Source: Seleniivibrio woodruffii (GTDB lineage Bacteria > Chrysiogenota > Deferribacteres > Deferribacterales > Geovibrionaceae). Taken from it: a stretch of 64,000 nt of DNA. The stretch spans positions 87,106-151,105 of the forward strand of contig NZ_SMGG01000003.1 of assembly GCF_004339245.1 (NCBI RefSeq), in the 5' to 3' direction. Positions within the stretch are counted from its first letter, which is position 1. Every line of letters starts with the position of its first letter. Made by a program: the position numbers and the translations under genes. This document shows positions 34,643-55,805 of this stretch, in pieces. The notes below the pieces were generated by a model, which searched no databases, was not told where the DNA came from, and saw nothing but the letters and a program-made list of their open reading frames with translations.

Positions 34643-34724
34643 GTTAAACTAGCCCCCCTGCTGTTTCTATTGGGATCTCTTAGTCATTCTGAACCCGAAG
34701 GGTAAAGAATCACTGATCAACCCG

Positions 34725-34750
34725 GACTCTTCGCTCCGCTCAGAGTGACG
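34725..34750. repeat. Dispersed intergenic repeat, copy R4 (short subtype GACTCTTCGCTCCGCTCAGAGTGACG)
   Basis: Lies in the ppx-ppk1 spacer and matches the right arm of the 47810..47836 copy. Confidence 0.7.
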
Positions 34751-34757
34751 CAGAATA

Positions 34758-36275
34758 TTATTCGTAGAGTATCCTTGTCTCAAGTTCTATGGGAATACCG
34801 AAAGTATCCGTGAAAATTCTGCTCTTTTCGCCGAATGCATGCTTCTCAAGGAATGCCAGACTCTTGCATTTGGCTTTGATGACAACCTTTCCCGTCTGGA
34901 TGTCCACATCGAAATCCTGAATCAGGTTCATGTGGGAAGCATCCAGAGAATCGGCAATCCTCAGCATGCTTACCAGTTTCTTTATCAGAAGCTGCTTCTC
35001 TATGGAAAAATAGTGATATTTCTGCTCGAACCACTTCTCAACATCGCCGTTGTGCATCAGAACCAGATATGAAACCAGTTTCACACGCTCCCTGGGAAGC
35101 CCGGGGATCTCCAGAGACTGCACCAGATAGTAAGAGTGCTTATTATGCTTCACCGCATCGATATAATAACCGATATCCGACAGCATCGCCGCCGCCTCAA
35201 GGAGAAACTTCTCCTGTCTGCCCAGCGAGTGCAGAGGCTTAAGCTCATCAAACAGCTTCATTGCAAAGCGGGTTGTGGTCTCCGCATGCCGCTGATCCAT
35301 GTTGAACCTTTCGCCCAGAGCATATATCGTGTTCCGGACACGGTTGAAAAAACCTCTGTCTCGAACGGTATTGGTATGATAAAGGCTCAGCATGTGCGGG
35401 AAAGTCATCCCTGAAAACCGCACATAGTCCGTTCCGACAAAGTCCATAAGCTTGAGATAGGTCACCAGTGTGGGAACCAGAAGCCCTGCCTCATCCTTTC
35501 GTATCTTCATCACCGACTGAATCGTGTCTCTGGGCAGCTGTTTAACCCTGTCGTAAAGCTCTTCCAGCTGTTTTCTGGTGAGCATGTTCTTTTTGGGTTT
35601 GAAAATGTTCAGAAGAACGTTCAGCGATGAGCCGGCACTGACAAAATATTTCAGCTTGCATCCGGCGGGCAGTCCGCTCTTCATGGAGTAACACATCTTC
35701 TCGACGTACTGCTCATAAGCCTTGTATCTTATTCGGGCAGGGATGTCGCCGAAGATTCGGCGAAGCCTAAGCGCACCGTAGGGCAGTGCGCCGGAATACA
35801 TGTTCTGCTCGTCTTTCAGAATAGCCATTGCGATGTTTCCGCTGGAGATGTTTGCCAGCAGAACGCCCGCCTTCTCATAGTCGTCAAAATCCTCTATATC
35901 ATTCTTAACACTTACAAATTTAATATATATCTCATCTGCCGGCTGAATAACCTCAAGCTCAATGCCCGTCTCCTGCTTCACATGGTTAATGAAAAAGGCT
36001 CGGTTGCCCGCCTCACGCACGCCGCTGGTGCACACGGCAACGTAGTTCTTCTTTATGCCGTATTCATCCATTTTGATGCGGAATTTTTTCAGGATATCAG
36101 TGGCCGCATAAACACTCTCAAGGGAGATGTATCCTTTGGTGAAGGTGTCTCTGCCCAGCCTGAATGGTTTTATGAGATATTCCAGAGTGCGCTCCTCTCC
36201 GTTCACATACTCGCTGATGTGCATGCGGAATGCGCTCGCCCCGATGTTTATCGCCGCAAAAATACCGTTCTTCAT
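34758..36275 (-). CDS. ppx: Ppx/GppA-family exopolyphosphatase with C-terminal HD-like domain
   Basis: ASKHA-fold N-terminus (AAINIGASAFRMHISE) and 505 aa length. Confidence 0.85.
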   Translation of the reverse strand: MKNGIFAAINIGASAFRMHISEYVNGEERTLEYLIKPFRLGRDTFTKGYISLESVYAATDILKKFRIKMDEYGIKKNYVAVCTSGVREAGNRAFFINHVKQETGIELEVIQPADEIYIKFVSVKNDIEDFDDYEKAGVLLANISSGNIAMAILKDEQNMYSGALPYGALRLRRIFGDIPARIRYKAYEQYVEKMCYSMKSGLPAGCKLKYFVSAGSSLNVLLNIFKPKKNMLTRKQLEELYDRVKQLPRDTIQSVMKIRKDEAGLLVPTLVTYLKLMDFVGTDYVRFSGMTFPHMLSLYHTNTVRDRGFFNRVRNTIYALGERFNMDQRHAETTTRFAMKLFDELKPLHSLGRQEKFLLEAAAMLSDIGYYIDAVKHNKHSYYLVQSLEIPGLPRERVKLVSYLVLMHNGDVEKWFEQKYHYFSIEKQLLIKKLVSMLRIADSLDASHMNLIQDFDVDIQTGKVVIKAKCKSLAFLEKHAFGEKSRIFTDTFGIPIELETRILYE

Positions 36276-37801
36276 ACCAGCCTTACAGGGAGTTTCAAAA
36301 GCTTAGCCAGCATATCCCTGTTTCTCTCAAAATCTTTTATTTCAAACGTAATGTCCTTGTCGGACACTGGTCTGATATCTATGGCAACTGGGGTGACGTT
36401 AACGTCAAGCCTGTCTATAAGCCCTTTGTGGGTTCTGTCCAGAGCTATCGCAAGCCTGAGCAGAGCCGTCAGTTTCTCAACCCTCAGCTGAAGCGAAAGG
36501 CAAAGATCGTTGAAATCGCCGTGCGCCGCTTTGGGCATGCTCTTTCTGTGATATCTGGCTATGCTGGCAATGGCCTCCACCTCGTCGTGTGTATAGCCCA
36601 CCAGCTCCGAATGCTTTATCATATAATAAGAGTGCTTATGATGTTTGGAATAAGCAATGTGTTTGCCGATATCCCTCAGCATCGCCGCCGCCTCAAGAAG
36701 ATACCAGTCCTTCTCAATAAGCCCCATGCGGTCTTTAAGCCCGTCAAAGAGCATTCTGGCCAGTTTCGCCACCTGAACGGCGTCCCTCTCGTCAAAGTCG
36801 AATTTGTTGCCCACCTCAATCAGCCTCGCATAGCGCACGTTGTCCATGCTGTTCTGCTGAAAAGGAAGCTCTATACCCATCCTGTTTATGGTGTCGATGG
36901 TGATTCCCGCCCGAAGTCCACCTGTCAGAGTGTAGAAACCGTCTATTCCCGTCTCTTCCAGAACCATGTCGGTCTGGATGGCCGCCGCAAGGATTATGTC
37001 CGCCCGTTTCTCCTCCATCCCCTCTATCTTCACCCGCTCCGCAGTGGTTTTTCCTCTGATGTCGCTGATGAATTTTTTCAGGAATTTCCGCTCAACGTAT
37101 TTCACCTGACTGTCACGCAGGTTCTTATCCCTGTAGTGACAGATCACTCCGGCGTTGTTCATGGAACCGCCTGTGCAGATGAGCATCTCAAGCCCTTTGC
37201 CCGGCTTCAGTTTATCAATATAGTCCTTAATGTGAGCCTTCATGGCAATTATCTGCGCCGACGTGGGCGGGTCGCCTTCCAGAAACTCACGGGTGAGCCT
37301 GTTGCAGCCCAGAGGCAGGCTTTTCGCCTTGTCCACCTCGCCGTCACGGACTATGGTATATTCCGCACTTCCGCCGCCTATATCGGTTATGAGAGCGTTG
37401 CGCCCTTTAAGTTCAAAATTTGCGCTGGCGGCCAGATAGGTGAGCCTCGCCTCCTCCTGTCCGCTTATGACCTCAATCTTTATCCCGCATTCCTGCTCAA
37501 CAATGTTAAGCGTCTCCCCGAGGTTGTCCGCCTCTCTGAAGGCCGCAGTGGCAATAGCTCTTATGGTTTTGCATCCCCTGCTCTCTGCAAGCCGCTTAAC
37601 ATTTTTGAGCGTGGAAACTATTGTTTCGATGGTATCTTTGGAGAAGTACCCCTGAGTGTATATCGCATCGCCGAGGCGTATCATCTCCTTATAGTCTTCA
37701 AGGACACGGTAGCTTTTGTCCTTCACCTCGGAAATCTGAAGACGTAAGGAGTTGCTGCCTATATCGGCAACAGCCACTTTGACGTTATCGCTTGATCGCA
37801 T
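36272..37801 (-). CDS. Second Ppx/GppA-family phosphatase (tandem paralogue)
   Basis: VAVADIGSNSLRLQISE motif, 509 aa. Its stop overlaps the downstream ppx start by 4 nt (ATGA). Confidence 0.85.
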   Translation of the reverse strand: MRSSDNVKVAVADIGSNSLRLQISEVKDKSYRVLEDYKEMIRLGDAIYTQGYFSKDTIETIVSTLKNVKRLAESRGCKTIRAIATAAFREADNLGETLNIVEQECGIKIEVISGQEEARLTYLAASANFELKGRNALITDIGGGSAEYTIVRDGEVDKAKSLPLGCNRLTREFLEGDPPTSAQIIAMKAHIKDYIDKLKPGKGLEMLICTGGSMNNAGVICHYRDKNLRDSQVKYVERKFLKKFISDIRGKTTAERVKIEGMEEKRADIILAAAIQTDMVLEETGIDGFYTLTGGLRAGITIDTINRMGIELPFQQNSMDNVRYARLIEVGNKFDFDERDAVQVAKLARMLFDGLKDRMGLIEKDWYLLEAAAMLRDIGKHIAYSKHHKHSYYMIKHSELVGYTHDEVEAIASIARYHRKSMPKAAHGDFNDLCLSLQLRVEKLTALLRLAIALDRTHKGLIDRLDVNVTPVAIDIRPVSDKDITFEIKDFERNRDMLAKLLKLPVRLV

Positions 37802-37838
37802 ATTTACTCCCGCAGAAAAGCCTTATTGATGAAGTATA

Positions 37839-39170
37839 TCAAATTCCCAGCGACTTTTTAACCCGTTTCTTTCCTTTACGGAAAATTCGGATAAGCTCCA
37901 CCGCCTGCTCCCGCTCCTGAGCCTTTTTCATTGCCAGAACTGCCATGATATATCCGCAGGCCGCCAGCAGTTTCGGGTCGGTCTCTGAGTTCAGCCTCTC
38001 CTGCATGTGTCCGCACTGAACGGACAGGTCGTTGTATCTGCCCAGACTGTCCTGAAGCGAACGCAGACGGGTCAGAACGTCCGCAGTGTTCTGCTCTTTA
38101 ATGAACAGCCCGAAAAATTCTATGCAGTATCTCAGCTTTTTGAAGGCTATACGGACACTGTGTATCTGCGCATCCTCCGACTCGCCGTCCACCCCTCCGG
38201 TCATAAGCTCCACCCTGCCGAATATCTTCGCCAGAGCTTTTGCGGCGGCCTTCGAGGTGTTCACAAAGCCTCTGCGGCCTATCTCCGCACGGGAGTTTAT
38301 CAGCCGTTCCCATTCGGCAAGGCTGTTATTATACTCCTCTGATGTCAGAAAATTCTGAAGCAATTCATAACTTTTATCCCGCTCCGCCCTGAAATGTGAT
38401 TTAAGCGGCTCAAAGGACTGCTTCATATCATCGGGCAGGATATCTTCATAGCCCTCAAGCTCTTCAAGATACACATCCATGTCCCTTGCCCTTCCGGTGT
38501 ATTCACCGAGGGATTTAAAGAACTGTCTGAAACGCATCTCTCTGTCTTCGGAATAGACACCCTTTAGCATTGACATTGCCGAACGGGTTCTGCGCACGGA
38601 GACACGGAAATCGTGGAGAAACTCAGCATCATACCCTTTCAGTATCCCGTCGGTGTTCAGGCGCATTATATTTATGAGGTCTGAGTGAACCCTCTGCATG
38701 GATTCCCAGAGAACGGCATCGCTGTCGGCGGGGCACTGCACCCTTGTGGTGTAGTCCAGCATCGGGTCACCGCACCTGGCCGCCGCACACGCAACCGCCT
38801 GCCCGAAGCCTTTCAGCTCCTCAGCGCAGTAATGGAATGCGAAATCTTCCTGCGGCTCCTCAGTGTATATAATATATGATGAACCCATGGCATAAAGACG
38901 CCCCTTTATGCCGCCTGCATCAAAAGAGTGTTCAGTCACGGGCAATTTCAGCTTTTCAAACAGATATCTTCCTGAGTATCCGGCTTTTGTGTCCGCTTCC
39001 TGATTGAAAAGGAATCTGTCCTTTCCGTCTGACCAGACAACCCTTCCGGTTCGTACCAGCTGCCATTCGAAGGTATCAAATACCGTTATCTCATAATCCC
39101 TGAGCTTTCTGTAGCGCAGACGGAACTTTCTGTCCGATGCAGGTTTGATGTCGGAAATATAGTACGGCAT
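37839..39170 (-). CDS. CYTH (triphosphate tunnel) plus CHAD domain protein
   Basis: N-terminal CYTH-like beta region and a C-terminal helical CHAD-like region with conserved His/Arg/Lys. I chose ATG 39170 as the start, directly after the sixA stop. Confidence 0.65.
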   Translation of the reverse strand: MPYYISDIKPASDRKFRLRYRKLRDYEITVFDTFEWQLVRTGRVVWSDGKDRFLFNQEADTKAGYSGRYLFEKLKLPVTEHSFDAGGIKGRLYAMGSSYIIYTEEPQEDFAFHYCAEELKGFGQAVACAAARCGDPMLDYTTRVQCPADSDAVLWESMQRVHSDLINIMRLNTDGILKGYDAEFLHDFRVSVRRTRSAMSMLKGVYSEDREMRFRQFFKSLGEYTGRARDMDVYLEELEGYEDILPDDMKQSFEPLKSHFRAERDKSYELLQNFLTSEEYNNSLAEWERLINSRAEIGRRGFVNTSKAAAKALAKIFGRVELMTGGVDGESEDAQIHSVRIAFKKLRYCIEFFGLFIKEQNTADVLTRLRSLQDSLGRYNDLSVQCGHMQERLNSETDPKLLAACGYIMAVLAMKKAQEREQAVELIRIFRKGKKRVKKSLGI

Positions 39171-39171
39171 A

Positions 39172-39627
39172 TCAGAGCAGAGCCTTCTGCTGGATAAGGT
39201 TGACGAGAACACTGTCCTCAATGTGGGCAATGGAGCCCTTCTTGAGCTGAAGCCTCAGTGCTTTGCCGCCGGTGATGAACGATATCACCTCCGACAGATC
39301 AGGCTCGTGCCCCACAACTGCCAGAGGCGAAGCATGCCTCCAGTCGGAAACGGTCTCCAGATAGTCCTTTATCTTCGCACCAGGATTAAGCCTCTCCCTG
39401 ATGTCGTATTTGACACCGCAAAGTTCCGATATTATCGAGGCGGTCTCCACAGAGCGCACCGCTGCGGATGTCAGCACTGCGGCCGGCTTGTCGTAAATAT
39501 TGAAAAATCGGGCGAACGCCCTCTTTGCACGAACCTTTCCCCTGTCGGTAAGCGGCCTGTCCAGATCCCGGCCTTTAAAAACCTCTCTGTCCTCTGCATG
39601 GGCGTGACGTATCAGATACACTATCAT
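39172..39627 (-). CDS. sixA: Phosphohistidine phosphatase SixA-like (histidine phosphatase superfamily)
   Basis: MIVYLIRHAHAE RHG motif. 151 aa. Confidence 0.8.
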   Translation of the reverse strand: MIVYLIRHAHAEDREVFKGRDLDRPLTDRGKVRAKRAFARFFNIYDKPAAVLTSAAVRSVETASIISELCGVKYDIRERLNPGAKIKDYLETVSDWRHASPLAVVGHEPDLSEVISFITGGKALRLQLKKGSIAHIEDSVLVNLIQQKALL

Positions 39628-39959: not shown

Positions 39960-40033
39960 AAATCTCTCCAAAAAACGAAAACGGCGGCCCATCTGACCGC
40001 CATAATCGCTTAACTTAACACCTTTACAGATTC

Positions 40034-40648
40034 TTACCCGAGGGGCAGAACTGTTCTTTTATAAACTTCGTTGAGAACCTGCGCCGCGCCTACATACATT
40101 GCAGACAGACCGCAGAGAACGCCTTCAAATCCGGCAAATTTCTTGAGCGATGCGCTCTCGAACATATCGCCGATAGCAAGAAGCATGAACAGGATAACCA
40201 GTAGGAAGAAAACAACCTGAAGGCCTTTGTTCAGCTTGAATGTGCCTATGAAAAGGATAAGGGAGAAGAAGCCCCACAGGAAAAGGTATGCAGACATTGC
40301 AACCGTATCGGGTTTTTCAAATCCCATCTTGGGCAGAACGATTATACCCACCAGTGTGAGCCAGAACAGACCATATGAAGTAAAGGCCACTGTGCCGAAA
40401 GTATTTTTCTTTTTCCATTCCATCATACCAACGATGATCTGTCCCAGACCGCCATAGAAAATACCCATTGCGAGTATTCCGCTGTCCAGAGGGAAAAGAC
40501 CGATGTTATGCAGGTTAAGAAGAATTGTAGTAAGACCGAATCCCATAAGTCCGAGAGGAGCAGGATTTGCGGTGGAGTCTGCGATTACTGTTTCCGCAAT
40601 CTGTCCGATAGCTGCTTCAGTATTCACAGCTTCAACTTTGTTGCTCAT
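40034..40648 (-). CDS. satP: GPR1/FUN34/YaaH-family acetate/succinate channel
   Basis: [14 protein letters not shown] signature and six TM segments. 204 aa. Confidence 0.88.
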
Positions 40649-40815
40649 GCTATACCTCCAAAATATAATAGAAAATAATCAATAACCTTGGTTATCTTCA
40701 AGTTATCAACTTTTGCTGAATAAGGTATACATCACGATTTTTTGACATTCAATAAGAATTTATCATGCGTAAACAAGGTTAATTAATGCTTCATGATTTA
40801 AAAACGTAGTTTTAA

Positions 40816-40837
40816 CTTTTTAGCATATGCTAAAAAG
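40816..40837. promoter_or_regulatory. Perfect 22-bp palindrome CTTTTTAGCATATGCTAAAAAG (candidate operator)
   Basis: Exact dyad symmetry within the AT-rich island, about 170 bp upstream of the satP start. Confidence 0.4.
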
Positions 40838-41574
40838 CCTATTAATCAGAACATTTGCTGATATATTAATAATAGATTCATTTTAAGTAAAACCAAAAAT
40901 ATCCAATTAAAATTACATTATGTTCTATTTTATTTTTTTCATACAAGCTGAAAAATTTTAGCCTATACAGGACATCATTTACCACCTCAGCCCCCTTATA
41001 AAAGGATTTTTACGCCATTGCTTAACCTGTAAACACTTCTGGTTAATATTTACCAAAAGCATATCTCCCATATCTGTTTCTTTCATCAAAAATACACATT
41101 TTCGGCCAGCGTTGTCAGACAGGCTTACTTTTTATACAAGAATACAAAACTTTGTTTCTTTATGATTAATATTTGACTGAAATTCCAACCAGTAAATTCA
41201 TCATAAATACCATTTTTAAAGCACTGATTGAATAACTTCGGTTTTATAACATGTTACTGCAAAACCTGCACAAAGCATTTCAAAGAGCATCTGGCATGGC
41301 ATACGCACGACACTTCATCAGGATTTTGTTAACCAGTTATTACCACCCCTTATGTGAGCGGAGGCTTGTATAACCTCTTTTTCTGTTAATGAACGATTTA
41401 ACCTTTGCGCAACTGAATTTACCCCGAATTAAAATCAGCATATCATCAATATATTATGCATACATCACACGGTATTTTATATTCTGGTTATATTTTTTCT
41501 GCCAATTTATCCTATGTTGCCAACTATTTTCTGAATTAAACAAACTATAGTTTGCGACCGAAACAATATTTTTA

Positions 41575-41603
41575 TTGACACAGGAAATAATTTGCTAAAT
41601 AAT
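41575..41603 (+). promoter_or_regulatory. Predicted sigma70 promoter driving the Phe-rich leader
   Basis: TTGACA-N17-AATAAT. The predicted TSS falls at or just before the leader ATG at 41610, so the transcript may be leaderless. Confidence 0.45.
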
Positions 41604-41609
41604 CTATCC

Positions 41610-41684
41610 ATGAATATGAACAGATTTTTTGCAGCAGCTTCATTTTTCTTTTTTGGTTTCTTTTGGTGCTCAAGCCCTGAGTAA
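41610..41684 (+). CDS. Phe-rich leader peptide (24 aa, MNMNRFFAAASFFFFGFFWCSSPE)
   Basis: 8 Phe and 1 Trp in 24 codons. Lies 30 nt upstream of a strong terminator and 110 nt upstream of the binding-protein gene. Confidence 0.6.
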   Translation: MNMNRFFAAASFFFFGFFWCSSPE

Positions 41685-41715
41685 ACCGTGGAGTTCTGCT
41701 TAACAAGCTGACAAA

Positions 41716-41749
41716 GGGCTGTGAGGAACGAACTCACAGCCCTTTTTTT
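41716..41749 (+). terminator. Attenuator terminator of the Phe leader
   Basis: GGGCTGTGAG-gaacgaa-CTCACAGCCC 10-bp stem followed by T7. The leader 3' end GCTCAAGCCC (41668..41677) can pair with the 5' arm as an antiterminator. Confidence 0.7.
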
Positions 41750-41794
41750 GTTTCAGCCTTCAAATAACATGTTTTATATATCGGAGGTATCAGG

Positions 41795-42907
41795 ATGAAA
41801 AAATCGGTTCTTACGGCACTTCTGCTTCTCGTTTCTGTCTGCGCCTACGCAGAAATAAGGATTGGCGCACTACTCGCACTCTCAGGCCCCATATCAAACC
41901 TCGGCAAACCCGGTCAGGAAATTATTGACGGTGTTGTCGAAGAGGCCAACAAAAAAAACCTGCTCGGCGACAAGATAAGAGTGATATCATACGACACCCA
42001 GTCACTGCCGGACAGAGCGCAAACCTACGCCAAAAAGCTCATAGCCAAGGACAAGGTTGACGTGATAGTCGGTCCCAACGGCACGGGCGAGGCACTGTCG
42101 GTCATCGGAGAGGCTATGTCCTCAAAAACACCGATAATGGCATTCGCAGGCGGAACCTCAGTTGTCGAACCCCTTAAACCCTACATATTCAAATCACCCC
42201 AGAAAACATCAACAGCAATCGAAAAAGCATTCAATTATCTGAAAAAGAAAGGCCTCACAAGAATTGCAGTTGCCGCTGACGCAACGGGATTCGGCCAGGA
42301 CGGTCTGGACCAGATAAACAAATATTCCTCAGGACTCACCATTACCGCCATTGAAAAGTTCAACGCAACCGACAACGACATGAGCACACAGATGTCGAAA
42401 CTGCTGTCAACAAAGCCTCAGGCAGTCGTTATCTGGACAGTGGGCAGAGCGGGCGCAATTGCAGCTAAAAACCTTCGTGCGCTTGACAAGAACATTCTTA
42501 TGGTTCAGTCACACGGCATAGCCGACAACTCATACCTTAAACTTGCGGGCGATGCCGCCGAAAACACGGTCATGCCCTCGGTTAAGCTGACAGTGGCATC
42601 AAGCCTCCCCGCAAACGATCCCCAGAAAAAGGTTATCGATGCTTTCGTAGCCAAATACGGCAAGCTCATCGATGAGACATCCGTTCACGCAAGCTATGCA
42701 TATGACGGCATAAACCTTGTTCTGTCCGCACTGAAAAAGGCAAAGGCCGAAAAGATAACACTTCAGCAGGCTCTGGAGAAGACCACTAAGTTTGTGGGTG
42801 TCACCGGAGTTTATAACATGAGCAAAAACGACCACTGCGGCCTCGACCTCTCTTCAATGGTCATGGTTCGGGTGAAGAACGGCCAGTTTGTTCTGGAAGA
42901 AATGTAA
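41795..42907 (+). CDS. ABC transporter periplasmic binding protein, LivJ/LivK (branched-chain/aromatic amino acid) family, copy 1
   Basis: Signal peptide and a Leu/Ile/Val-binding protein (LIVBP)-fold PBP, 370 aa. It is a paralogue of the next gene. Confidence 0.8.
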   Translation: MKKSVLTALLLLVSVCAYAEIRIGALLALSGPISNLGKPGQEIIDGVVEEANKKNLLGDKIRVISYDTQSLPDRAQTYAKKLIAKDKVDVIVGPNGTGEALSVIGEAMSSKTPIMAFAGGTSVVEPLKPYIFKSPQKTSTAIEKAFNYLKKKGLTRIAVAADATGFGQDGLDQINKYSSGLTITAIEKFNATDNDMSTQMSKLLSTKPQAVVIWTVGRAGAIAAKNLRALDKNILMVQSHGIADNSYLKLAGDAAENTVMPSVKLTVASSLPANDPQKKVIDAFVAKYGKLIDETSVHASYAYDGINLVLSALKKAKAEKITLQQALEKTTKFVGVTGVYNMSKNDHCGLDLSSMVMVRVKNGQFVLEEM

Positions 42908-42922
42908 TTATAAGTTTATAAA

Positions 42923-42951
42923 GGTTACGGTATCCGCCGTAACCTTTTTTT
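42923..42951 (+). terminator. Intergenic hairpin/terminator between the two binding-protein genes
   Basis: GGTTACGG-tatccg-CCGTAACC stem followed by a TTTTTTT run. Confidence 0.6.
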
Positions 42952-42962
42952 CTGGAGGATAT

Positions 42963-44075
42963 ATGAAAAAGATTCTCATAGCCGCATCTGTACTCCTTCT
43001 CAGCATATCTGCATATGCAGAGGTGAAGATAGGTGCGCTTCTGGCTCTCACAGGGCCTATCTCGAATATCGGCAAGCCCTCGCAGGAGATTCTGGAAGGG
43101 GTCATAGCCGATGCAAACAAGGCAAAGTTCATGGGCGAGCCCATAACCCTTATCACCTATGACACTCAGGGGATGCCCGACAAAACGATGCTCTTCGCAA
43201 AAAGACTCATCAACAAGGATGAGGTCAATGTCATAGTCGGCCCCACATCAACAGGCGAGGCGATGTCTATCCTCGGCTCCATTATGGAAGCCCAGATACC
43301 CACAATGGGATTTGTGGGCGGAACTCCCCCTGTTGAACCCGTCCGTCAGTACATGTTCAAGTCGCCCCAGAAAACATCAACAGCTGTTGAAAAAACCTTC
43401 GGCTATCTGAAAAAGAAAGGCCTGACAAAGATCGGCGTTGTCGTTGACGCTACCGGCTTCGGTCAGGACGGGCTTGATCAGATAAACAAATACGCCGCAG
43501 GAATGACCATCACAGGCGTTGAAAAATTCAACATGACCGACACGGATATGACAACCCAGATGAAAAAGATTCTGGACACAAAGCCTCAGGCCATAGTGGT
43601 GTGGACGGTGGGCAAGGCGGGTGCAGTAGCCGCCAAGAGTCTCCGTGCCCTTGACAAGAACATCCCCCTCATCCAGTCCCACGGCATAGCGGATTTCGCC
43701 TATACCAAGCTGGCGGGTGATGCGGCCGAAGGCTCCATTATGCCCGCTCTCAAAATAGTCGTTGCAAATCAGCTCCCCGCAAACGACCCCCAGAAAAAAG
43801 CAATCGAGCTTTTCAACAAACGCTACGGAAAGCTCATCGACGAGACATCGGTTCACGCCATCTATGCATATGACGGGCTGAACCTGATGCTGAACGCACT
43901 GAAACGCTCAAAAAATGAGAAGATAACTGTAATTCAGGCTCTTGAGACCACAAAGAATTTCACAGGCGTCACAGGAGTCTATAACCTTTCAAAAACAGAC
44001 CACTGCGGTCTGGATGCTTCTTCGCTGGTCATGGTGAAGATCAAGAACGGTCAGTTTGTACTGGAAGATATGTAA
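42963..44075 (+). CDS. ABC transporter periplasmic binding protein, LivJ/LivK family, copy 2
   Basis: GGAGGA Shine-Dalgarno and ATG at 42963 (MKKILIAASVLLLSISAYA). Roughly 60% identical to copy 1. Confidence 0.8.
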   Translation: MKKILIAASVLLLSISAYAEVKIGALLALTGPISNIGKPSQEILEGVIADANKAKFMGEPITLITYDTQGMPDKTMLFAKRLINKDEVNVIVGPTSTGEAMSILGSIMEAQIPTMGFVGGTPPVEPVRQYMFKSPQKTSTAVEKTFGYLKKKGLTKIGVVVDATGFGQDGLDQINKYAAGMTITGVEKFNMTDTDMTTQMKKILDTKPQAIVVWTVGKAGAVAAKSLRALDKNIPLIQSHGIADFAYTKLAGDAAEGSIMPALKIVVANQLPANDPQKKAIELFNKRYGKLIDETSVHAIYAYDGLNLMLNALKRSKNEKITVIQALETTKNFTGVTGVYNLSKTDHCGLDASSLVMVKIKNGQFVLEDM

Positions 44076-44082
44076 TACAAAA

Positions 44083-44113
44083 ATCCCCCTCGGCTGAGGG
44101 GGATTTTTTTTAT
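44083..44113 (+). terminator. Strong rho-independent terminator
   Basis: AATCCCCCTC-ggct-GAGGGGGATT stem followed by a T9 run. Confidence 0.85.
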
Positions 44114-44132
44114 TATCCACTCGGCATCAGCT

Positions 44133-44160
44133 GAGATTCTTCGTTACACTCAGAATGACT
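44133..44160. repeat. Dispersed intergenic repeat, copy R6 (degenerate: GAGATTCTTCGTTACACTCAGAATGACT)
   Basis: Aligns with the short subtype GAGACTCTTC...CAGAGTGAC. Confidence 0.5.
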
Positions 44161-44289
44161 CTTTTTGAACATGCCTGACTGACACACGGCAACACATTTA
44201 CAGGCATAACCAGAAGCCTTTTTTCTTTAAATTATTGTTTCATTGGTGTAGTATTTCAGAATTCTGTCATAAAATTAACGGTGATTCAG

Positions 44290-46032
44290 ATGGTCAACGG
44301 TTTCTTTCTGGGCAACGAGCTGATAGCTCTCGCCGCTGTAAATTCCGGCGTTAAAAGCGCATATGCCTATCCCGGCACTCCCTCCAGTGAAATCCTCTCT
44401 GCGTTTCAGAAGTTCGCACCAGAGCGTTACGCTCAATGGTCGCTGAACGAAAAGATAGCTCTGGAACTGGCCGCAGGCGAGGCCATATCCGGTTCTTCAA
44501 CTCTCTGCTGTATGAAAATGGTGGGACTGAACGTAGCCGCCGATCCGCTTTTCAGCGTGGCCTACACAGGCGTTGCGGGCGCAATGGTGCTTGTTTCCGC
44601 CGACGATCCCGGCCCCTACAGCAGCCAGACCGAGCAGGACAGCCGTATGTATGCGGTGAGCGCAAAGATGCCCGTTCTGGATCCATGCAACCCGCAGGAT
44701 GCCTACAGGCTGACCATGCTGGCATATGATATATCTACTAAATACAAGCTTCCGGTAATGGTGCGACCGGTTATGCGTGTCTGTCACTCCCGCCAGAATT
44801 TTGAGACTGGCGAGGCTGCGGCACAGCCCCTTCATGGGCAATTCCAAAAGGACATGCCACGCTGGGCGGCAACTCCTAAGTTCCGCCGTATTCTCCATGA
44901 AAAACTGAACAGAAGCCTCGACCTACTCGCTGCCGAGATGGCACCGAAAATACCCGAAAAGAAATACGACATGGCAGTGGTTGCCTCCGGCTATGCCTAT
45001 GCCATGGCGAAAGACATAATAGACGAACTGAATCTGCCCTTCGACATCATAAAGGTCGATATGCCCTATCCTCTGGACAGGCAGTTCGTAATCGAAACCG
45101 AGCTGGTCTACGACAGGATAGTGGTTCTGGAAGAGACCTTTCCCGTTATCGAACATAACTTTACAATAAAGACCGTCGGCAGGCTGAACGGACTTATCCC
45201 CTCCGAAGGGGAGCTGACGCCCGACATCATCGCCGACATACTGCTCACCACGGCGGGCATACAGCACGAACGTGAAAAGGCGGAGGCGGAAACCGCCGAA
45301 ACTCCCGTTAACCTGAAACCCCGACTCTGCGCAGGATGCGGACACAGACCGGCTTTCTATGCCATGAAGCTGGCGGCTCCGGACGGTATTTTCCCCGGCG
45401 ATATCGGCTGTTATACTCTGGGCATAAATCTGAACGCAGTTGACACCTGCATATGCATGGGAGCATCCATCACATTTGCAGAGGCTCTTAAACGATCCAA
45501 TCCCGAAAAACCCGTAATATGCACCATAGGCGATTCCACTTTCTTCCACACTGGAGTGACCGGACTCACCAACGCAGTTGTGAACAACGCACCCATAGTG
45601 GTTGCCATTCTGGACAACGAAACCACTGCAATGACAGGTTTTCAGCCCGTGCCCCATCTGTCGGGCAAGCTCACCATTGAGCAGGCATGCAGAGGCGCAG
45701 GAGTTAACCATATCGTCACCGTTGATCCCTATAATCTGAAAAAGGGGACGGAGGCGCTGAAACAGGCTATCGCATACGCCCACACGGACAACGCTCCGGC
45801 AGTGGTAATCTTCAACAAAGAGTGCGTTACCAAAACGAGATATAAGAACAAAAAGACGGCGGAGATCTCCGATGCCTGCACCGACTGCACCATCTGCTAT
45901 GAAAAATTTGAATGTCCCGCCATCTCCCGCAACAGGGTTAAAAGGATGGCAGAGATAGACCAGAACGCCTGCGTGGGCTGCATGGTCTGCATTCAGGTCT
46001 GCCCGATAAAGGCCATAGGGGTGAAGAAATGA
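44290..46032 (+). CDS. iorA: Indolepyruvate:ferredoxin oxidoreductase alpha subunit
   Basis: Thiamine pyrophosphate (TPP) binding domains and two C-terminal 4Fe-4S ferredoxin motifs (CTDCTICYEKFECP, CVGCMVCIQVCP). A GTG at 44281 is an alternative start. Confidence 0.85.
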   Translation: MVNGFFLGNELIALAAVNSGVKSAYAYPGTPSSEILSAFQKFAPERYAQWSLNEKIALELAAGEAISGSSTLCCMKMVGLNVAADPLFSVAYTGVAGAMVLVSADDPGPYSSQTEQDSRMYAVSAKMPVLDPCNPQDAYRLTMLAYDISTKYKLPVMVRPVMRVCHSRQNFETGEAAAQPLHGQFQKDMPRWAATPKFRRILHEKLNRSLDLLAAEMAPKIPEKKYDMAVVASGYAYAMAKDIIDELNLPFDIIKVDMPYPLDRQFVIETELVYDRIVVLEETFPVIEHNFTIKTVGRLNGLIPSEGELTPDIIADILLTTAGIQHEREKAEAETAETPVNLKPRLCAGCGHRPAFYAMKLAAPDGIFPGDIGCYTLGINLNAVDTCICMGASITFAEALKRSNPEKPVICTIGDSTFFHTGVTGLTNAVVNNAPIVVAILDNETTAMTGFQPVPHLSGKLTIEQACRGAGVNHIVTVDPYNLKKGTEALKQAIAYAHTDNAPAVVIFNKECVTKTRYKNKKTAEISDACTDCTICYEKFECPAISRNRVKRMAEIDQNACVGCMVCIQVCPIKAIGVKK

Positions 46033-46538
46033 TTCAGGGAATTATCTGCGGCAAGGGCGGACAGGGTGTCATAACCCTTAACGCCATGATAGGCACTCTG
46101 GCGGCAAACATGAATATTCCCGCAGTATCTGCGGAGACCCACGGAATGGCCATGCGTGGCGGTTCTGTGGCAACGTACATAAAGATAGGTCAGGGGCTGA
46201 GCGCATCCGTTGCGGAGCATTCGGCGGATTTCATAATCAGTCTGACAAAGGATGAGGCGCTCAGAAACCTGAACTTCATCAAAAAGGACGGAATACTCAT
46301 TGTGGACAGCGAGAAACCGCTGGACATAAAAGGGATAAGAGTTATCGCACTGCCAGCATCCGACATTGCCGAAGAAAAATTCGGCGGGTGGATATACGGC
46401 GGTCAGGTGCTGTTGGGCATCTTTCTGGGCTGTTTCGGAGCAATTGACACCGCAAAAGCTCTGGAAATCCTCAGAAACGCACCTAAAATCAGTATCGAAG
46501 CCATAGAATACGGGGTGAAACATGCACAAGCTGACTGA
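46029..46538 (+). CDS. iorB: Indolepyruvate:ferredoxin oxidoreductase beta subunit
   Basis: Begins MIQGIICGKGGQGVIT, the pyruvate:ferredoxin oxidoreductase gamma-like fold. Its start overlaps the iorA stop by 4 nt. Confidence 0.85.
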   Translation: MIQGIICGKGGQGVITLNAMIGTLAANMNIPAVSAETHGMAMRGGSVATYIKIGQGLSASVAEHSADFIISLTKDEALRNLNFIKKDGILIVDSEKPLDIKGIRVIALPASDIAEEKFGGWIYGGQVLLGIFLGCFGAIDTAKALEILRNAPKISIEAIEYGVKHAQAD

Positions 46539-47745
46539 TATTCAGCTTCTGAAACTGGGAACAACGCTTCATCACATAAAGAAGTCGAACCCTTACTATT
46601 TTTCCAGATATGAGACAGACAGGGTGACAAGCTATGAGGATCTGACGAAACTTCCCTTTATCACAAAGGATGTCCTGCGTCAGGGCTACCCCTTTGCATA
46701 TGCCTGTGCAGACATAAAAAACTGCGTGCGCATGCATATGTCAAGCGGCACCACAGGCAAGCCCATCATAAACCCCATGACCGAAGGGGACGTGAACCAG
46801 TGGGGCGAGATCATGGCACGCTGCTACACCACCGCAGGGGTGACAAGCGAAGACGTGGTACAGATAACCCCGTCTTTCGGACTTTTCAACGGCGGTTTCG
46901 GTTTCCACTACGGGGCTGAAAGGCTGAAAAGCTTCATAATACCCATGGGTGCAGGCCGCTCCATGCTTCAGCTCCAGTTCATCAAAGACCTTGAAACGAC
47001 CTGCCTCTGCGCAATCGCATCCTATCCCCTCAGGCTGATGGAGGTTGCTAAGCAGGAGGGCTTCAACTTTAAAGAGACAAAACTCCGTGTGGGCATCTTC
47101 GGTGCGGAAACATGGACGGACGGCATACGCCGCAGAATAGAAAAAGAGATGAACATCGAAACTTTCGATATCATCGGCATGACGGAAACAGGCGGAGTCG
47201 GTCTGGGCATCGACTGCAAAGACCACAGCGGAATCCACGTCTGGGACGATCACTACATAGTGGAGATAGTGGATCCTGAAACGGGTGAACCTCTGCCCGA
47301 CGGCGTTGAGGGTGAGATGGTTGTAACAACGCTGACCCGTGAAGGTCTGCCAATGATACGCTACCGCACCCGTGACATAACAAAAATAGTCAGCAGAGGT
47401 CTCTGCAAATGCGGACTGAACACGGTTAAGATAGCCAGACTGAAAGGCCGCACGGACGATATGCTGAAAGTGAAAGGGGTCAACTTCTACCCCGCACAGA
47501 TAGAATCTATCCTGATGGAGTTCACCGAACTTGGCGAGGAATACAGAATCATCCTCGACAAGAAAAAGGGCAAAGGGGATGTTACCCTTGCCGTTGAAAC
47601 AAACGGCATAAGCGACGACACCAGAGACCGTCTGGACACTACTCTGTATGATTTCCTCGGCTTCCGTGTTGACGTTCAGTACCTGAAACCGGGAACACTG
47701 GAACGCTCTCAGGGCAAAGCAATTCGGGTCATCGACAACAGATGA
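46522..47745 (+). CDS. paaK: Phenylacetate-CoA ligase family adenylate-forming enzyme
   Basis: PaaK-like motifs (MSSGTTGKPI, YGxTE region) and a C-terminal ACT-like domain. 407 aa. Confidence 0.8.
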   Translation: MHKLTDIQLLKLGTTLHHIKKSNPYYFSRYETDRVTSYEDLTKLPFITKDVLRQGYPFAYACADIKNCVRMHMSSGTTGKPIINPMTEGDVNQWGEIMARCYTTAGVTSEDVVQITPSFGLFNGGFGFHYGAERLKSFIIPMGAGRSMLQLQFIKDLETTCLCAIASYPLRLMEVAKQEGFNFKETKLRVGIFGAETWTDGIRRRIEKEMNIETFDIIGMTETGGVGLGIDCKDHSGIHVWDDHYIVEIVDPETGEPLPDGVEGEMVVTTLTREGLPMIRYRTRDITKIVSRGLCKCGLNTVKIARLKGRTDDMLKVKGVNFYPAQIESILMEFTELGEEYRIILDKKKGKGDVTLAVETNGISDDTRDRLDTTLYDFLGFRVDVQYLKPGTLERSQGKAIRVIDNR

Positions 47746-47767: not shown

Positions 47768-47836
47768 CCGTCACTCTGAGGCTTATACCGAAGAGTCTCT
47801 GTCTTACATGAGACTCTTCACTCCGTTCAGAGTGAC
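47768..47836. repeat. Palindromic pair of the dispersed repeat (long copy plus inverted short copy)
   Basis: CCGTCACTCTGAGGCTTATACCGAAGAGTCTC ... GAGACTCTTCACTCCGTTCAGAGTGAC, between the convergent paaK and TRIC genes. Confidence 0.7.
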
Positions 47837-47846
47837 AAAAATGCAC

Positions 47847-48455
47847 CTATCTCTCCCCTGCTCTGGGCAGGTGAAATTCCAGCTTAAGGGTTATCATCCG
47901 CACTGCGAAAACCAGCAGCGCACTGACAGCCGCATTAAGCGACTGATCCACACCGAAATGGTGCAGTGTGCAGTAGAGCGCACCGCCTATTATGCATGCC
48001 GAGGCATACACCTCACGGGTGAGCACCAGCGGCGTGGCATTTATGAGCACATCACGGATCATACCGCCGACAGTACCCGTCATAACCCCGAATATCATCG
48101 AACCGACATAGCCCACGCCGGAGCTGAGGGCGATGTTTATACCCATCACGTTAAAAAGACCAAGCCCCAGCGCATCCATCACCACCAGAAGGTTATAGCT
48201 TCTTTTCACATGGCTGTGGAAAAGTATGACCAGCATGGCCGCCCCGATGGACAGAAACAGATAATTGGAGTCCTTGAAAACGAACGGAGGCACACGACCC
48301 AGCATTGTGTCACGAAGGGTTCCGCCGCCCACTGCCGTAACAATGGCCAGAAAGGTCACCCCGTAAAGGTCGAGTTTTTTACGCACTCCCGCCAGCGCAC
48401 CGCTGACAGCGAATGCGAAAGTACCCAAAAGATCAAGGGCATATAAAATCGTCAT
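47847..48455 (-). CDS. TRIC/UPF0126 (YadS-like) trimeric cation channel family membrane protein
   Basis: Two repeats of the glycine-rich TM motif (AVSGALAGV, TAVGGGTLRD). Confidence 0.75.
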   Translation of the reverse strand: MTILYALDLLGTFAFAVSGALAGVRKKLDLYGVTFLAIVTAVGGGTLRDTMLGRVPPFVFKDSNYLFLSIGAAMLVILFHSHVKRSYNLLVVMDALGLGLFNVMGINIALSSGVGYVGSMIFGVMTGTVGGMIRDVLINATPLVLTREVYASACIIGGALYCTLHHFGVDQSLNAAVSALLVFAVRMITLKLEFHLPRAGER

Positions 48456-49198: not shown

Positions 49199-49331
49199 TA
49201 TCCCTTCCGTTGTTTAAAGTCATTATCAGTAAAAAAAACTTACAGTTGAAATTCCATTATGTATAATCTATGATTACTTGATATACAACTCTTGTGTTAC
49301 TATATAGTTTCACATTTATTTGGTGATATAT

Positions 49332-52055
49332 ATGTCATTCTTAAGGCGCAGGCTGACAGCCGACCTGTCATTGACTGATATTGTAAGCCTTATTCTTTTA
49401 TCCGCTCTCGGATTTGCCGGAAACTACTTCAAAATCGGGATTTTCTTTAATGTAGACTTCCTTTTCGGAAGCATCTTCACAATGTATGCCGTCAAAAGAT
49501 ACGGAATGATCGGCGTTATTCCGGCATTCATAGCATCTTTATACACCTATACCCTCTGGAATCACCCATATGCAATAATAATCTTCACATCCGAAGCACT
49601 GTTTGTTGCGTTTCTGCGCAGAAAGGCCGCAGGGGTGATAGTCCACGACCTCATATACTGGCTGACCGCAGGACTGCTCCTGATATTCATATCGTACCAT
49701 TTCATAATGGGTGTTCCGGTTTCAACAGTCAAGCTTGTGATATTGAAGCAGAGCATAAACGGAATCGTCAACACCGTCTGCGCAACCATTCTTTTTTACG
49801 GTGTAAACTACTACGGCAAGATAACGGGTTCCGGTTTCAGGCGGATATCGTTCCGGCAGACCTTTTTCATACTCATACTGATGATAGCCGCTTTTCCGGC
49901 GATCGCATATGTGGTGTTCGGAGTTAAAACCCAGACAAATGAGATCACTGGGGAGCTGAAAGACGAACTGAACACCATGTACAACATGACCTCCATCTCC
50001 ATAGAATCCCTTCTGGACGAGGCCTACGGCAAGATAAACGGACTGGCGGATAAGGCCGCCTCCGAAGCCATGACGGATTCCGCCACCACCCTTGACGAAC
50101 ACATTGAGACTGTGCTCAATTCGTCTGAAATCTTCATCGGAATGGCTTTTCTAAGCCCCGACGCCAAAGCGGAGCATGTTTACATAAAAACGGATGAAAA
50201 AGTGAAACGGTTCAGCAATGTTGATTTCAGCGGTTCAGGCTATTACGAAGCCATAGGCAAAACCGATGCAACCTACGTTTCCGAAGCTACAAAAAGCTCT
50301 TTCAGGCCGGAGGGAACCCACGTTATCGTGATCATTAAACCTGTTAAGGACGAATCGGGATATCTGCTGGGGTTCATGCAGGCCAGTATGAATTTTGACA
50401 AAATACAGGGGCTTATGAGATCCGTCAGCAAGGATTCGGGCATAGACCTCACCCTTTCCGACAAAAACAGCACCGTGATAATAAACACTTCCGGCAGATT
50501 CAAAGGCGGCAATAAATTCAGCTATCCCGAAGGCTATGCGGCCTTTGACCACGACAGCAGAGGGATATTTATGAGTGCACCCATCCCTCAGAATAACCAC
50601 TCGGTTATGATCCGCTGGAGCAGTTCATTCTATGTCAAATCCGGAGAGCTTGCGCCTTCGGGACTCAAACTCACCGCACAGATGCCCCTTGCCTTACACA
50701 TGGGCAGAATAAACGATATCGGCTACAGGGCGCTTAAAATAATATATCTGGTCATAATACTCTGCATTGCCGCAGCAATGATAATCAGCAGACAGATATC
50801 CCTCCATCTGGAGAATCTTCAGACAAACACAGGGCTTATGCCGGAAAAGATACGCAAAGGGGAGAAAATTCCATCTGTTCAGTCTGTTTTTGCTGAAATA
50901 ACCGACCTTTCGGATCATTTTTCGGCAATGTCCAGACTGCTTTCCGAAAAATTCGGTGAGATAAGCCGCCAAAAGGGCGAACTTTCCCTGATAATGGACT
51001 CCATACCACTGATAATCTTTATGAAAGACACTGAAAACAACATAATCAGTGTAAACAGAACCGCCGCAGAAAGCATGGGGCTAAGCGCCTCAGGCACTGC
51101 AAGGCTCAACGTCTACAAACATTTCCCCTCTTTCGCAGACAGGGTTTATCACGACGACATAAAGGTCATAACCTCCAGATCACCTTTGCTGGGTATAATC
51201 CAGAAATATAACAGCCTGACCGTTAAGACCGACAAGATACCCGTCTTAAACGAAAAGGGGCAGGTGACCTCAATTCTGGTAATCTCAAGGGATATAACGG
51301 ACGAGCTGAAAGCTCAGGAAGAGAAGCAGAGGACACTGGAAACGCTTTATCAGCAGTCGAAAATGGCAGAGATGGGAGCCATGACAGCCGCCATTGCCCA
51401 CCAGTGGAAACAGCCTCTGAGCACTGTTTCGATTCTGACTCAGATGATTGAGTCCGAAATTTCCGACGGAAACCTCACGAACGAATCCCTTCTGACATAC
51501 ACAGGGCTGATGCTTAAGAACACTGATTTCATGAGCCAGACTGCGGACGATTTCACCCATTTCTTCAAGACTGAAAAGAAGAAGCAGATGTTCCGCCCCT
51601 GCGACACCATAACTGAGATATACGGAATAATTGACTCCCAGTTCCGCAGATACGGCATTGAGTTTATAACCAGAGAGCATGCACATTTCAGCGTTTACGG
51701 GTTTAAGAACGAGTTCAAACAGGTCTGTCTGAACCTTCTGGTGAACGCCAAAGATGCTCTGGCTGGCTCAAAAAAGGAAGATAAGCGGATTGAGGTTGCA
51801 TTCAGTCAGGATGATAACTACCGGATAATGACCTTTGAGGACAACGGCGGAGGGATATCGGAAGAACTTCTGCCGGACAGACTGTTTGAGATGTATCAGA
51901 CATCCAAAGGCGAAAGCGGAACAGGAATAGGCCTGTACATATGCAGGTCCATCATAGAGAACCATATGGGCGGAAAAATAACGGCTGAGAACACGGACAA
52001 AGGAGCAAGATTCACAATATATCTGCCGTCCGATCAGACGATAGCCCATGCCTGA
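49332..52055 (+). CDS. Sensor histidine kinase with N-terminal polytopic membrane domain, extracytoplasmic Cache-like region, PAS, HisKA and HATPase_c
   Basis: H-box AIAHQWKQPL and G-box GTGIGLYICRS. Paralogue of the next gene. The listed start at 49320 is TTG. Confidence 0.8.
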   Translation: MSFLRRRLTADLSLTDIVSLILLSALGFAGNYFKIGIFFNVDFLFGSIFTMYAVKRYGMIGVIPAFIASLYTYTLWNHPYAIIIFTSEALFVAFLRRKAAGVIVHDLIYWLTAGLLLIFISYHFIMGVPVSTVKLVILKQSINGIVNTVCATILFYGVNYYGKITGSGFRRISFRQTFFILILMIAAFPAIAYVVFGVKTQTNEITGELKDELNTMYNMTSISIESLLDEAYGKINGLADKAASEAMTDSATTLDEHIETVLNSSEIFIGMAFLSPDAKAEHVYIKTDEKVKRFSNVDFSGSGYYEAIGKTDATYVSEATKSSFRPEGTHVIVIIKPVKDESGYLLGFMQASMNFDKIQGLMRSVSKDSGIDLTLSDKNSTVIINTSGRFKGGNKFSYPEGYAAFDHDSRGIFMSAPIPQNNHSVMIRWSSSFYVKSGELAPSGLKLTAQMPLALHMGRINDIGYRALKIIYLVIILCIAAAMIISRQISLHLENLQTNTGLMPEKIRKGEKIPSVQSVFAEITDLSDHFSAMSRLLSEKFGEISRQKGELSLIMDSIPLIIFMKDTENNIISVNRTAAESMGLSASGTARLNVYKHFPSFADRVYHDDIKVITSRSPLLGIIQKYNSLTVKTDKIPVLNEKGQVTSILVISRDITDELKAQEEKQRTLETLYQQSKMAEMGAMTAAIAHQWKQPLSTVSILTQMIESEISDGNLTNESLLTYTGLMLKNTDFMSQTADDFTHFFKTEKKKQMFRPCDTITEIYGIIDSQFRRYGIEFITREHAHFSVYGFKNEFKQVCLNLLVNAKDALAGSKKEDKRIEVAFSQDDNYRIMTFEDNGGGISEELLPDRLFEMYQTSKGESGTGIGLYICRSIIENHMGGKITAENTDKGARFTIYLPSDQTIAHA

Positions 52056-52136
52056 AACACCATTGATATTTGATATGTCATCGGCTTTCTGGTATAGAAT
52101 ATAAAAGTTTATTTAATTCACAAGCGGGAGCTCGGT

Positions 52137-55719: not shown

Positions 55720-55805
55720 CGGCGGATTATATCATTTCCCGCAGGTTTGTCAGCTTTTTATCCTCACAGGTGGTATATTTGCTTATAAAACCACCGGAGG
55801 CCCTC

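Follow-up and report, generated by a model that had tools for sequence, protein, structure and literature searches.

A Phe-rich leader with a Trp codon as candidate ribosome-mediated attenuator ahead of aromatic-acid binding-protein and iorAB-paaK genes in Seleniivibrio woodruffii

The genome of Seleniivibrio woodruffii contains a short open reading frame (ORF) crowded with Phe codons, which lies between a promoter and an intrinsic terminator directly upstream of two genes for solute-binding proteins, here called BP1 and BP2, followed by iorA, iorB and a paaK-like gene. The stretch of DNA analyzed, referred to as the window, comprises 64,000 nt, and all coordinates given below are positions in it. 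The question raised by this locus is whether the leader senses the supply of an amino acid, and, if so, what the regulated genes would contribute to this supply. Our analysis makes it reasonably probable that the leader represents a ribosome-mediated transcription attenuator sensing the charging of tRNA-Phe and probably also of tRNA-Trp. As a more tentative proposal, for which we would claim less than an even chance, this leaderless Phe/Trp attenuator might tie the uptake of arylacetates and their conversion by IorAB and PaaK to the charging of aromatic tRNAs, with iorAB-paaK, a cluster widespread among bacteria, serving anabolic salvage of Phe and Trp and not fermentation at least in this clade.

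The leader region begins with a sigma-70-type promoter on the plus strand (TTGACA-17 nt-AATAAT, 41575..41603), which matches 11/12 consensus positions and was the top-scoring match when the stretch 40000-44500 was scanned for promoters. The ATG of the leader ORF (41610..41684, plus strand) is located 6 bases past the -10 box, at the predicted transcription start. The ORF comprises 24 codons, MNMNRFFAAASFFFFGFFWCSSPE followed by the stop codon, and encodes 8 Phe and 1 Trp, of which 6 Phe and the Trp fall within 8 consecutive codons that form the regulatory codon block FFFFGFFW (41643..41666, plus strand). Further downstream, 31 nt past the leader stop codon and 45 nt ahead of the BP1 ATG (41795), an intrinsic terminator is found on the plus strand (AAAGGGCTGTGAG-GAACGAA-CTCACAGCCCTTT and a T run, 41713..41749), which has a 13-bp stem, a 7-nt loop and a folding energy of -22.9 kcal/mol. 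ORF, promoter and terminator had all been pointed out in a preliminary description of this DNA, and position as well as composition of the ORF and the promoter were recovered as described there, the terminator stem being measured as 13 pairs. The nearest upstream gene is a divergent gene of the satP/Gpr1 family on the minus strand, about 1.1 kb off across an AT-rich spacer; hence, the terminator does not serve any upstream gene of the plus strand. A second promoter between the terminator and BP1 was not found when this region was scanned. The leader ATG is not preceded by a Shine-Dalgarno sequence, in contrast to the BP1 gene, which has GGAGG at 41783-41787. Because the Shine-Dalgarno sequence is missing and the spacing between -10 box and ATG is fixed at 6-7 nt among related loci, the leader ORF probably starts at the transcription start site, i.e., it would be leaderless.

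The Phe richness of the leader ORF exceeds chance. The window contains 1017 small ORFs (10-50 codons, both strands), none of which apart from the leader ORF reaches 5 or more Phe in 9 codons, and dinucleotide-preserving shuffling of the intergenic region produced an ATG ORF on the plus strand with at least 6 Phe in 9 in only 7/2000 cases. In 479 kb of other loci, comparably Phe-rich ORFs were limited to the orthologous leaders, pheL of E. coli and 6 scattered ORFs among ~3800 small ORFs, which gives a background of about 0.16%.

The element also recurs in relatives. According to a homologue search, the close relatives of BP1 are confined to Seleniivibrio-like Deferribacterales, where a genome scan combined with contig look-ups provided nine related loci, all with the gene order satP (minus strand), leader, BP1, BP2, iorA, iorB and paaK. 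Group A, consisting of the window and L001-L004, has binding proteins that are 86-88% identical and the leader peptide M..NR....SFFFFGFFWCS..E; group B (L005, L006, L038 and L039, ~70% identical) has a 28-codon leader, M..NNVN.LFS.FFFSFFFCFWH.DC.., and group C (L033, also ~70% identical) a 27-codon leader, MINKPEAAHTFFDFFFFGFWRYGCVQS, each sequence ending at the stop codon. Between the groups, nucleotide alignment is limited to promoter and terminator, and the Phe/Trp blocks (FFFFGFFW in A, FFFSFFFCFW in B, FFDFFFFGFW in C) are encoded by different nucleotides. The promoter TTGACA-N17-[AG]ATAAT is kept in 9/9 related loci, and in all groups the ATG lies 6-7 nt past the -10 box without Shine-Dalgarno sequence, the ORF length is held at 24-28 codons, and six or seven Phe codons with 1-2 interrupting codons are followed by a Trp codon. 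The terminator stands at the same place in all related loci, 22-31 nt from the stop codon to the stem, with differing sequences and folding energies between -19.7 and -23.4 kcal/mol. Adjoining the terminator T run, groups B and C have a hexamer similar to TATAAT or TATAAC, a feature that is not conserved in group A. Overall, the leader is the best-conserved portion of the intergenic region between satP and BP1, the length of which is kept at 0.95-1.15 kb in all relatives. Conservation of the Phe-run ORF and the terminator in orthologous leaders had been named beforehand as a test of the attenuator proposal, and it was observed in three sequence-divergent lineages.

The way in which these leaders vary argues for translation. 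The codon block FFFFGFFW is invariant inside group A, the peptide residues outside the Phe run vary freely even there, and C residues within the T runs fall on third codon positions in every case, giving TTC codons in frame. Because of this third-position pattern and the free variation outside the block, the leader fits a translated sensor ORF in which the codon block alone matters, and neither a U-rich RNA motif nor a peptide with a function of its own. The distance from the end of the terminator T run to the BP1 ATG is only ~17-24 nt in groups B and C, so that a separate promoter could hardly be accommodated; hence, the expression of BP1 most likely depends on read-through of the terminator.

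Outside this clade the leader could not be detected. No comparable Phe-rich leader ORF was found upstream of the ~40%-identity homologues in Thermodesulfobacteriota and related bacteria (L007-L029), none in Deferribacter species, in which the homologous binding-protein gene adjoins an alcohol-dehydrogenase gene, and none at iorAB-paaK loci of other organisms (iorA 54-60% identity, one of them from Deferribacter abyssi). A metagenome scan with protein alignment found nothing, and one with a DNA pattern of promoter plus ATG gave four matches, all of them due to chance. In Deferribacter, a conserved block, TTGAC(T/A)TATTAAACA(A/T)TGTTT..TATTtCTTAAC....GGTTAAATAT, is situated ahead of the binding-protein gene (L030 5940-6000, L031 5925-6000, L032 5930-6000). 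It contains inverted repeats and resembles a promoter with repressor site, which points to a mode of regulation different from the leader.

How could the leader RNA switch between termination and read-through? In minimum free energy (MFE) folds, every variant forms a long-range stem, here called P1, followed by the terminator. P1 joins a segment upstream of the Phe run (5' arm region, 41621..41643, plus strand) to a segment at or just past the stop codon (3' arm GTGGAGTTCTGC, 41688..41699, plus strand, just past the stop codon and invariant in group A), with the Phe codons in the enclosed loop. From group to group (A, B, C), the sequences of the P1 arms are unrelated. When the duplex energy of the pre-Phe and the stop-codon segments was compared with 1000 dinucleotide shuffles, p values of 0.016 for L001, 0.026 for L006, 0.024 for L033 and 0.27 for the window were obtained, and their Fisher combination amounted to ~1e-3 if L001, and to ~1e-2 if the window, represented group A. 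Within group A, 98% of the P1 cells are paired and 4/4 variable pairs still pair through one-sided changes; double changes do not occur, the sequences being too close. The predicted stem has real, albeit modest, support. In L001-L004 the 5' arm is duplicated as a direct repeat CAGAA (leader nt 12-17 and 22-27, corresponding to window 41621-41636), which would give two alternative registers for pairing to the 3' arm, which does not vary. Two extra Phe codons (FF, 41625-41630) weaken the first copy in the window, where the second copy is strengthened (GCAGCAGCTTCA). In every variant, the 3' arm of P1 would lie under a ribosome that has reached the stop codon. This geometry matches that of a classical 1:2 hairpin, in which the 5' arm is masked as long as the ribosome sits on the first Phe codons and the 3' arm once it has arrived at the stop codon, and P1 might act as such a hairpin.

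On this basis, the following sequence of events can be envisaged. The transcript would begin with the A of the leader ATG or with an adjoining base, and a 70S ribosome would load on its 5' end without the help of a Shine-Dalgarno sequence. If no ribosome is present, or if one has run on to the stop codon and covers the 3' arm of P1, the terminator would form and a transcript of ~140 nt would result. Scarcity of Phe-tRNA (or Trp-tRNA) would stall the ribosome in the FFFFGFFW block, thereby masking the 5' arm of P1 and leaving the RNA downstream of the block free, which would disturb the folding of the terminator 5' arm and allow RNA polymerase to read into the binding-protein genes and possibly further into iorAB-paaK. 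A shortage of aromatic amino acids would thus switch on the uptake of arylacetates such as phenylacetate and indoleacetate, which would be converted to aryl-CoA and, via reductive carboxylation by IorAB, to the 2-oxo-acid precursors of Phe and Trp.

In this regard the leader shares several features with those of pheA (pheL) and pheST (pheM) in E. coli, namely a short ORF with dense Phe codons (FFFAFFFTF in pheL compared to FFFSFFFCF and FFFFGFF here), an intrinsic terminator in the 5' untranslated region after the leader ORF, a stem that links the ORF to the stop-codon region, and a stop codon placed such that the terminating ribosome covers the downstream arm. The differences concern the missing Shine-Dalgarno sequence and the probably leaderless start, the ORF length (24-28 codons compared to 15 in pheL), the conserved Trp codon after the Phe run, the phylum (Deferribacterota), and the downstream genes, which would serve uptake and salvage instead of being pheA or pheST. 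Furthermore, an antiterminator is statistically detectable in pheA (p<0.001) but not here. Thus, from the pheA/pheST-type architecture proposed in the preliminary description, the Phe-rich ORF and the terminator were retained, whereas its antiterminator was not confirmed.

The identity of the antiterminator indeed appears to be the weakest step of the model. It was searched for by ribosome-masked folding, truncated-transcript folding and duplex shuffle tests. In the pheL-pheA leader of E. coli, which was used as positive control, the antiterminator reached -18.0 kcal/mol, whereas shuffles averaged -8.3 (p<0.001), and the net gain amounted to -13.6 kcal/mol but was lost when the ribosome was placed at the stop codon; hence, the method can detect a classical antiterminator, and none was detected here. 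The earlier observation that GCTCAAGCCC (41668-41677) is complementary to GGGCTGTGAG (41716-41725) with one bulge holds for the window, where the candidate antiterminator strand (41666..41678, plus strand) can pair with 41715-41727. If a ribosome occupies the first Phe codons before the terminator 3' arm is made, 41669-41678 is predicted to pair with 41715-41725 at a net gain of -7.7 kcal/mol. The duplex amounts to -16.4 kcal/mol (p=0.046 in the shuffle test), and the candidate strand would be hidden under a ribosome that has moved to the last two Phe codons or to the stop codon. Beyond this strand, pairing of the post-Phe RNA with the terminator 5' arm, with its loop and 3' arm, or with the whole terminator was never consistently above chance.

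Several observations weigh against an attenuator of the proposed type. The closest relatives carry CTCAGCCTC where the window has CTCAAGCCC, which weakens the candidate antiterminator pairing without compensation, and groups B and C use another strand as best competitor of the terminator. In relatives the antiterminator duplex was no better than in shuffles (p 0.41, 0.17 and 0.35), so the pairing claimed originally exists in the window but is altered in the closest relatives and at shuffle level in the other lineages. The net stabilisation (free-energy difference, ddG) of -6.3 to -7.7 kcal/mol compares with shuffled means of -5.2 to -6.4 (p 0.19-0.38), and full-length MFE folds in which a ribosome masked the Phe codons always retained the terminator. 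If the terminator is left aside, the leader folds with an ordinary total energy (z -1.25, -2.8, -0.29 and +0.93). Moreover, terminator-like hairpins are also found right before and after BP2, and the sample is small, with three lineages of one clade, the more distant homologous operons being without the leader. The switch step could rest on weak antiterminator pairing (about -6 to -8 kcal/mol) or on a mechanism that simple thermodynamic tests miss.

Other explanations for the leader have to be considered against this background. It is unlikely that the leader forms a transcription unit of its own, closed by a constitutive terminator, which releases a ~140-nt trans-acting small RNA and/or a functional Phe-rich peptide, the binding proteins being expressed through leakage or from an undetected promoter. 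Such a unit would agree with the leader's own strong promoter and strong terminator, with the lack of an antiterminator above chance, and with the other terminator-like hairpins of the operon, which need read-through anyway; a precedent exists in Sinorhizobium, where RNAs derived from attenuators, as well as leader peptides, are reported to be capable of acting in trans (PMC6614838, PMC7298713). However, the peptide is conserved only in the Phe/Trp block, its hydrophobic stretch spans 9-14 residues, is broken up by Asp in variants B and C and is too short for a membrane helix, and no Rfam match points to a known small RNA family. The element is also always found directly before the same operon, with hardly any space left for a further promoter in groups B and C, and the frame-specific pattern in the T runs favours translation over a U-rich RNA motif. 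A functional membrane peptide, a type I toxin and a signal-peptide remnant were considered as well and rejected in view of the short stretch, which contains Asp in groups B and C, and of the unconserved N and C termini.

Somewhat further down in plausibility, and in our estimation improbable, stands a ribosome-dependent switch that is wired unlike the trp and phe systems, either with reverse logic, i.e., switched on at plentiful Phe for its catabolism to phenylacetate, or with a two-hairpin design, in which P1 and the position of the ribosome would influence termination by pausing or non-specific competition in place of a dedicated antiterminator. P1 is the sole conserved structure besides the terminator, a dedicated antiterminator is undetectable, IorAB/PaaK-type enzymes work in either direction, and competing pairing of about -5 to -6 kcal/mol is reached even by shuffled RNA as long as the segment that a stalled ribosome would leave free, all of which would be compatible with such a wiring. 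However, the pairing between Phe tract and terminator 5' arm that is needed for the reverse logic was below the shuffle average (p 0.64-0.97), the pairing between 5' region and terminator 5' arm was inconsistent (p 0.027-0.42), and we know of no precedent for an intrinsic-terminator attenuator without antiterminator.

It is very unlikely that nothing is sensed at all, i.e., that a T-rich 5' untranslated region is readable as Phe by accident and the hairpin acts as partial terminator or RNA stabiliser as typical of binding-protein genes. The intergenic region is indeed AT-rich (32% GC), and similar hairpins flank both binding-protein genes; however, the Phe density was rarely reached in the shuffles mentioned above, three divergent lineages keep ATG position, frame, ORF length, Phe run and Trp despite different nucleotides, and homologous genes outside the clade are without any such ORF. 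Finally, a UTP-sensing attenuator of the pyrBI type, in which RNA polymerase is slowed at a U-rich tract under low UTP, can practically be dismissed despite the long U-rich segment ahead of the terminator, since in pyrBI the leader ORF extends over the terminator and the coupled ribosome blocks the hairpin, whereas here the ORF stops 31 nt before it (22-31 nt across the variants), so that the hairpin is out of reach of a coupled ribosome. Moreover, nothing connects the downstream genes with pyrimidines, and the interruptions of the T runs respect the reading frame.

Returning to the attenuator as the favoured reading, described leader families do not include this element. At gathering scores, Rfam gave no leader, riboswitch or T-box match in the whole window, and at E values up to 10 the region 41400-41850 gave no leader family, only generic hairpin noise; the Phe_leader of Rfam is the family of gammaproteobacterial pheA leaders. 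Similarities exist to leaderless small ORFs of other bacteria. In Deinococcus deserti, fourteen leaderless leader peptides have been predicted upstream of genes for tRNA synthetases or biosynthesis (PMC4007540), and polycysteine leaderless small ORFs of mycobacteria, which have been studied experimentally, unmask a downstream ribosome-binding site (10.1101/834739). As proposed here, an ORF rich in one amino acid stands at the 5' end of the transcript, upstream of genes for the metabolism of that amino acid. The mycobacterial Cys ORFs act on translation, whereas the leader described here has an intrinsic terminator instead. The GGAGG of BP1 is unpaired in the folds examined, and a consistent anti-Shine-Dalgarno sequence does not exist across the variants; the mycobacterial mechanism is thus not recognizable at this locus. 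The accessible parts of both reports mention neither Phe-run leaders nor aromatic-acid transport, IOR operons or Deferribacteres.

The genes behind the leader provide hints on the physiological role. BP1 (41795..42907) and BP2 (42964..44075) encode proteins with Peripla_BP_6 matches in Pfam, BP2 being a paralogue with ~67% identity to BP1. They are followed on the same plus strand by iorA, starting at 44281 or perhaps with the ATG at 44290, iorB (46029-46538) and a gene for a PaaK-like aryl-CoA ligase (46522-47745), all three identified by Pfam matches. The top match of BP1 among solved structures is 7YLT (E 1.4e-37, full length), i.e., AdgB/IadK2 of Variovorax, which binds indole-3-acetate with nanomolar affinity and falls into subcluster B-III of aromatic-acid binding proteins. 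The next matches are proteins of Rhodopseudomonas palustris including the 4FB4 family, 4FB4 being a caffeate complex (PMC10374108), and the top matches together span E values of 1e-37 to 1e-28. Proteins named by their depositors as Leu/Ile/Val-binding match with much lower scores. The initial label of LivJ-like or branched-chain binding proteins is therefore imprecise, since the nearest solved homologues are aromatic-acid binding proteins, and judged by sequence the two proteins are closest to this type and not to LivJ. Genes for an ABC permease or ATPase were found neither in the operon nor in the scanned stretches of the window (~23.9-64 kb).

IorAB and PaaK-type enzymes can operate in either direction. 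IorAB and the aryl-CoA ligase could run in reverse and convert arylacetates into arylpyruvates, and a sensor of Phe and Trp codons before two aromatic-acid binding proteins would be in line with the salvage of arylacetates when aromatic tRNAs are uncharged. Hence, the direction of the pathway might be anabolic, from arylacetates to Phe and Trp precursors. An IOR-dependent route from aryl acids to aromatic amino acids is cited for Methanococcus maripaludis (Porat et al., as cited in PMC4162585), which resembles the combination of IorAB and aryl-CoA ligase beside aromatic-acid uptake proteins observed here. The literature searches gave no case in which a leader peptide regulates this aryl-acid/IOR route.

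How far the influence of the leader would extend into the operon is less clear. It certainly precedes BP1 and probably controls BP2. A terminator-like hairpin with T run (42920..42953, plus strand) lies in the gap between BP1 and BP2, a few bases before the Shine-Dalgarno sequence of BP2, and another one (44079..44116, plus strand) directly after BP2. Equivalents with different sequences occur between BP1 and BP2 in L001, L005 and L033 and after BP2 in L005 and L034. Such hairpins may be leaky or RNA-stabilising in S. woodruffii, and those flanking BP2 may be partial terminators or RNA stabilisers that set the ratio of binding proteins to enzymes. The 170 nt before iorA hold a motif, TGGTGTAGTAT, common to the window and L001, which might belong to an internal promoter. 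At 44236-44262, ~30 nt upstream of iorA, the motif CATTGGTGTAGTAT(T/C)TCA is common to the window and L001 and may be an internal promoter for iorAB-paaK; strings like TGGTGTA/TGTGTATAT occur in L034 and L005. Because of the two intervening hairpins and the possible internal promoter, control of iorAB-paaK by the leader is uncertain; the earlier proposal, which places the leader before uptake genes and iorAB-paaK, gives the gene order correctly. After paaK, the plus-strand ORF 47808-48446 (212 codons) did not match any Pfam family and probably represents a shadow ORF, as the overlapping ORF 47847-48455 on the minus strand represents a Gly_transporter (PF03458) gene, as it is called in L038 and L039. 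Hence, the operon ends at paaK.

The wider neighbourhood of the operon can be described as follows. The spacer between satP and the leader promoter (40649-41574, ~0.9 kb) is AT-rich, like the whole region from satP to BP1 (40649-41794, 32% GC), and it is poorly conserved except for the stretch adjacent to satP, which is 73% identical between the window and L001; an Rfam match, a strong promoter or a terminator was not found in this spacer. A polyphosphate cluster is situated upstream (32615-39627), with ppk1, two Ppx/GppA genes and genes for a CHAD-domain protein and a histidine phosphatase, and a PPK2 gene is found downstream (55770-57275). Just past the operon (49320-54854), two tandem paralogous genes encode sensor histidine kinases of ~905-911 residues with a dCache_1 domain, the second one also with PAS_4; a response regulator adjoining them was not found in the window.

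Furthermore, a leader of this kind would be of more general interest. To our knowledge, most leader-peptide attenuators described so far are from Proteobacteria, with some from a small number of other groups, and nearly all of them precede genes for biosynthesis or tRNA synthetases. No attenuator described at iorAB/paaK loci or at loci of aromatic-acid transporters was found in our literature survey, the incomplete coverage of which makes this weak evidence of novelty. If the attenuator exists as proposed, attenuation by leader peptides would be extended to Deferribacterota, and a further example would be gained in which a leaderless sensory ORF is coupled with an intrinsic terminator. It may also be that the switch works only with a translation-sensitive long-range stem and the terminator, without a dedicated antiterminator, which, if true, would be a departure from the three-hairpin paradigm; the leader also offers a compact case for asking which antiterminator strength is required. 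Finally, a sensor of Phe and Trp codons at this place would predict that the binding proteins, and perhaps IorAB and PaaK, supply aromatic amino acids from environmental arylacetates, a prediction that concerns an operon whose direction is usually ambiguous.

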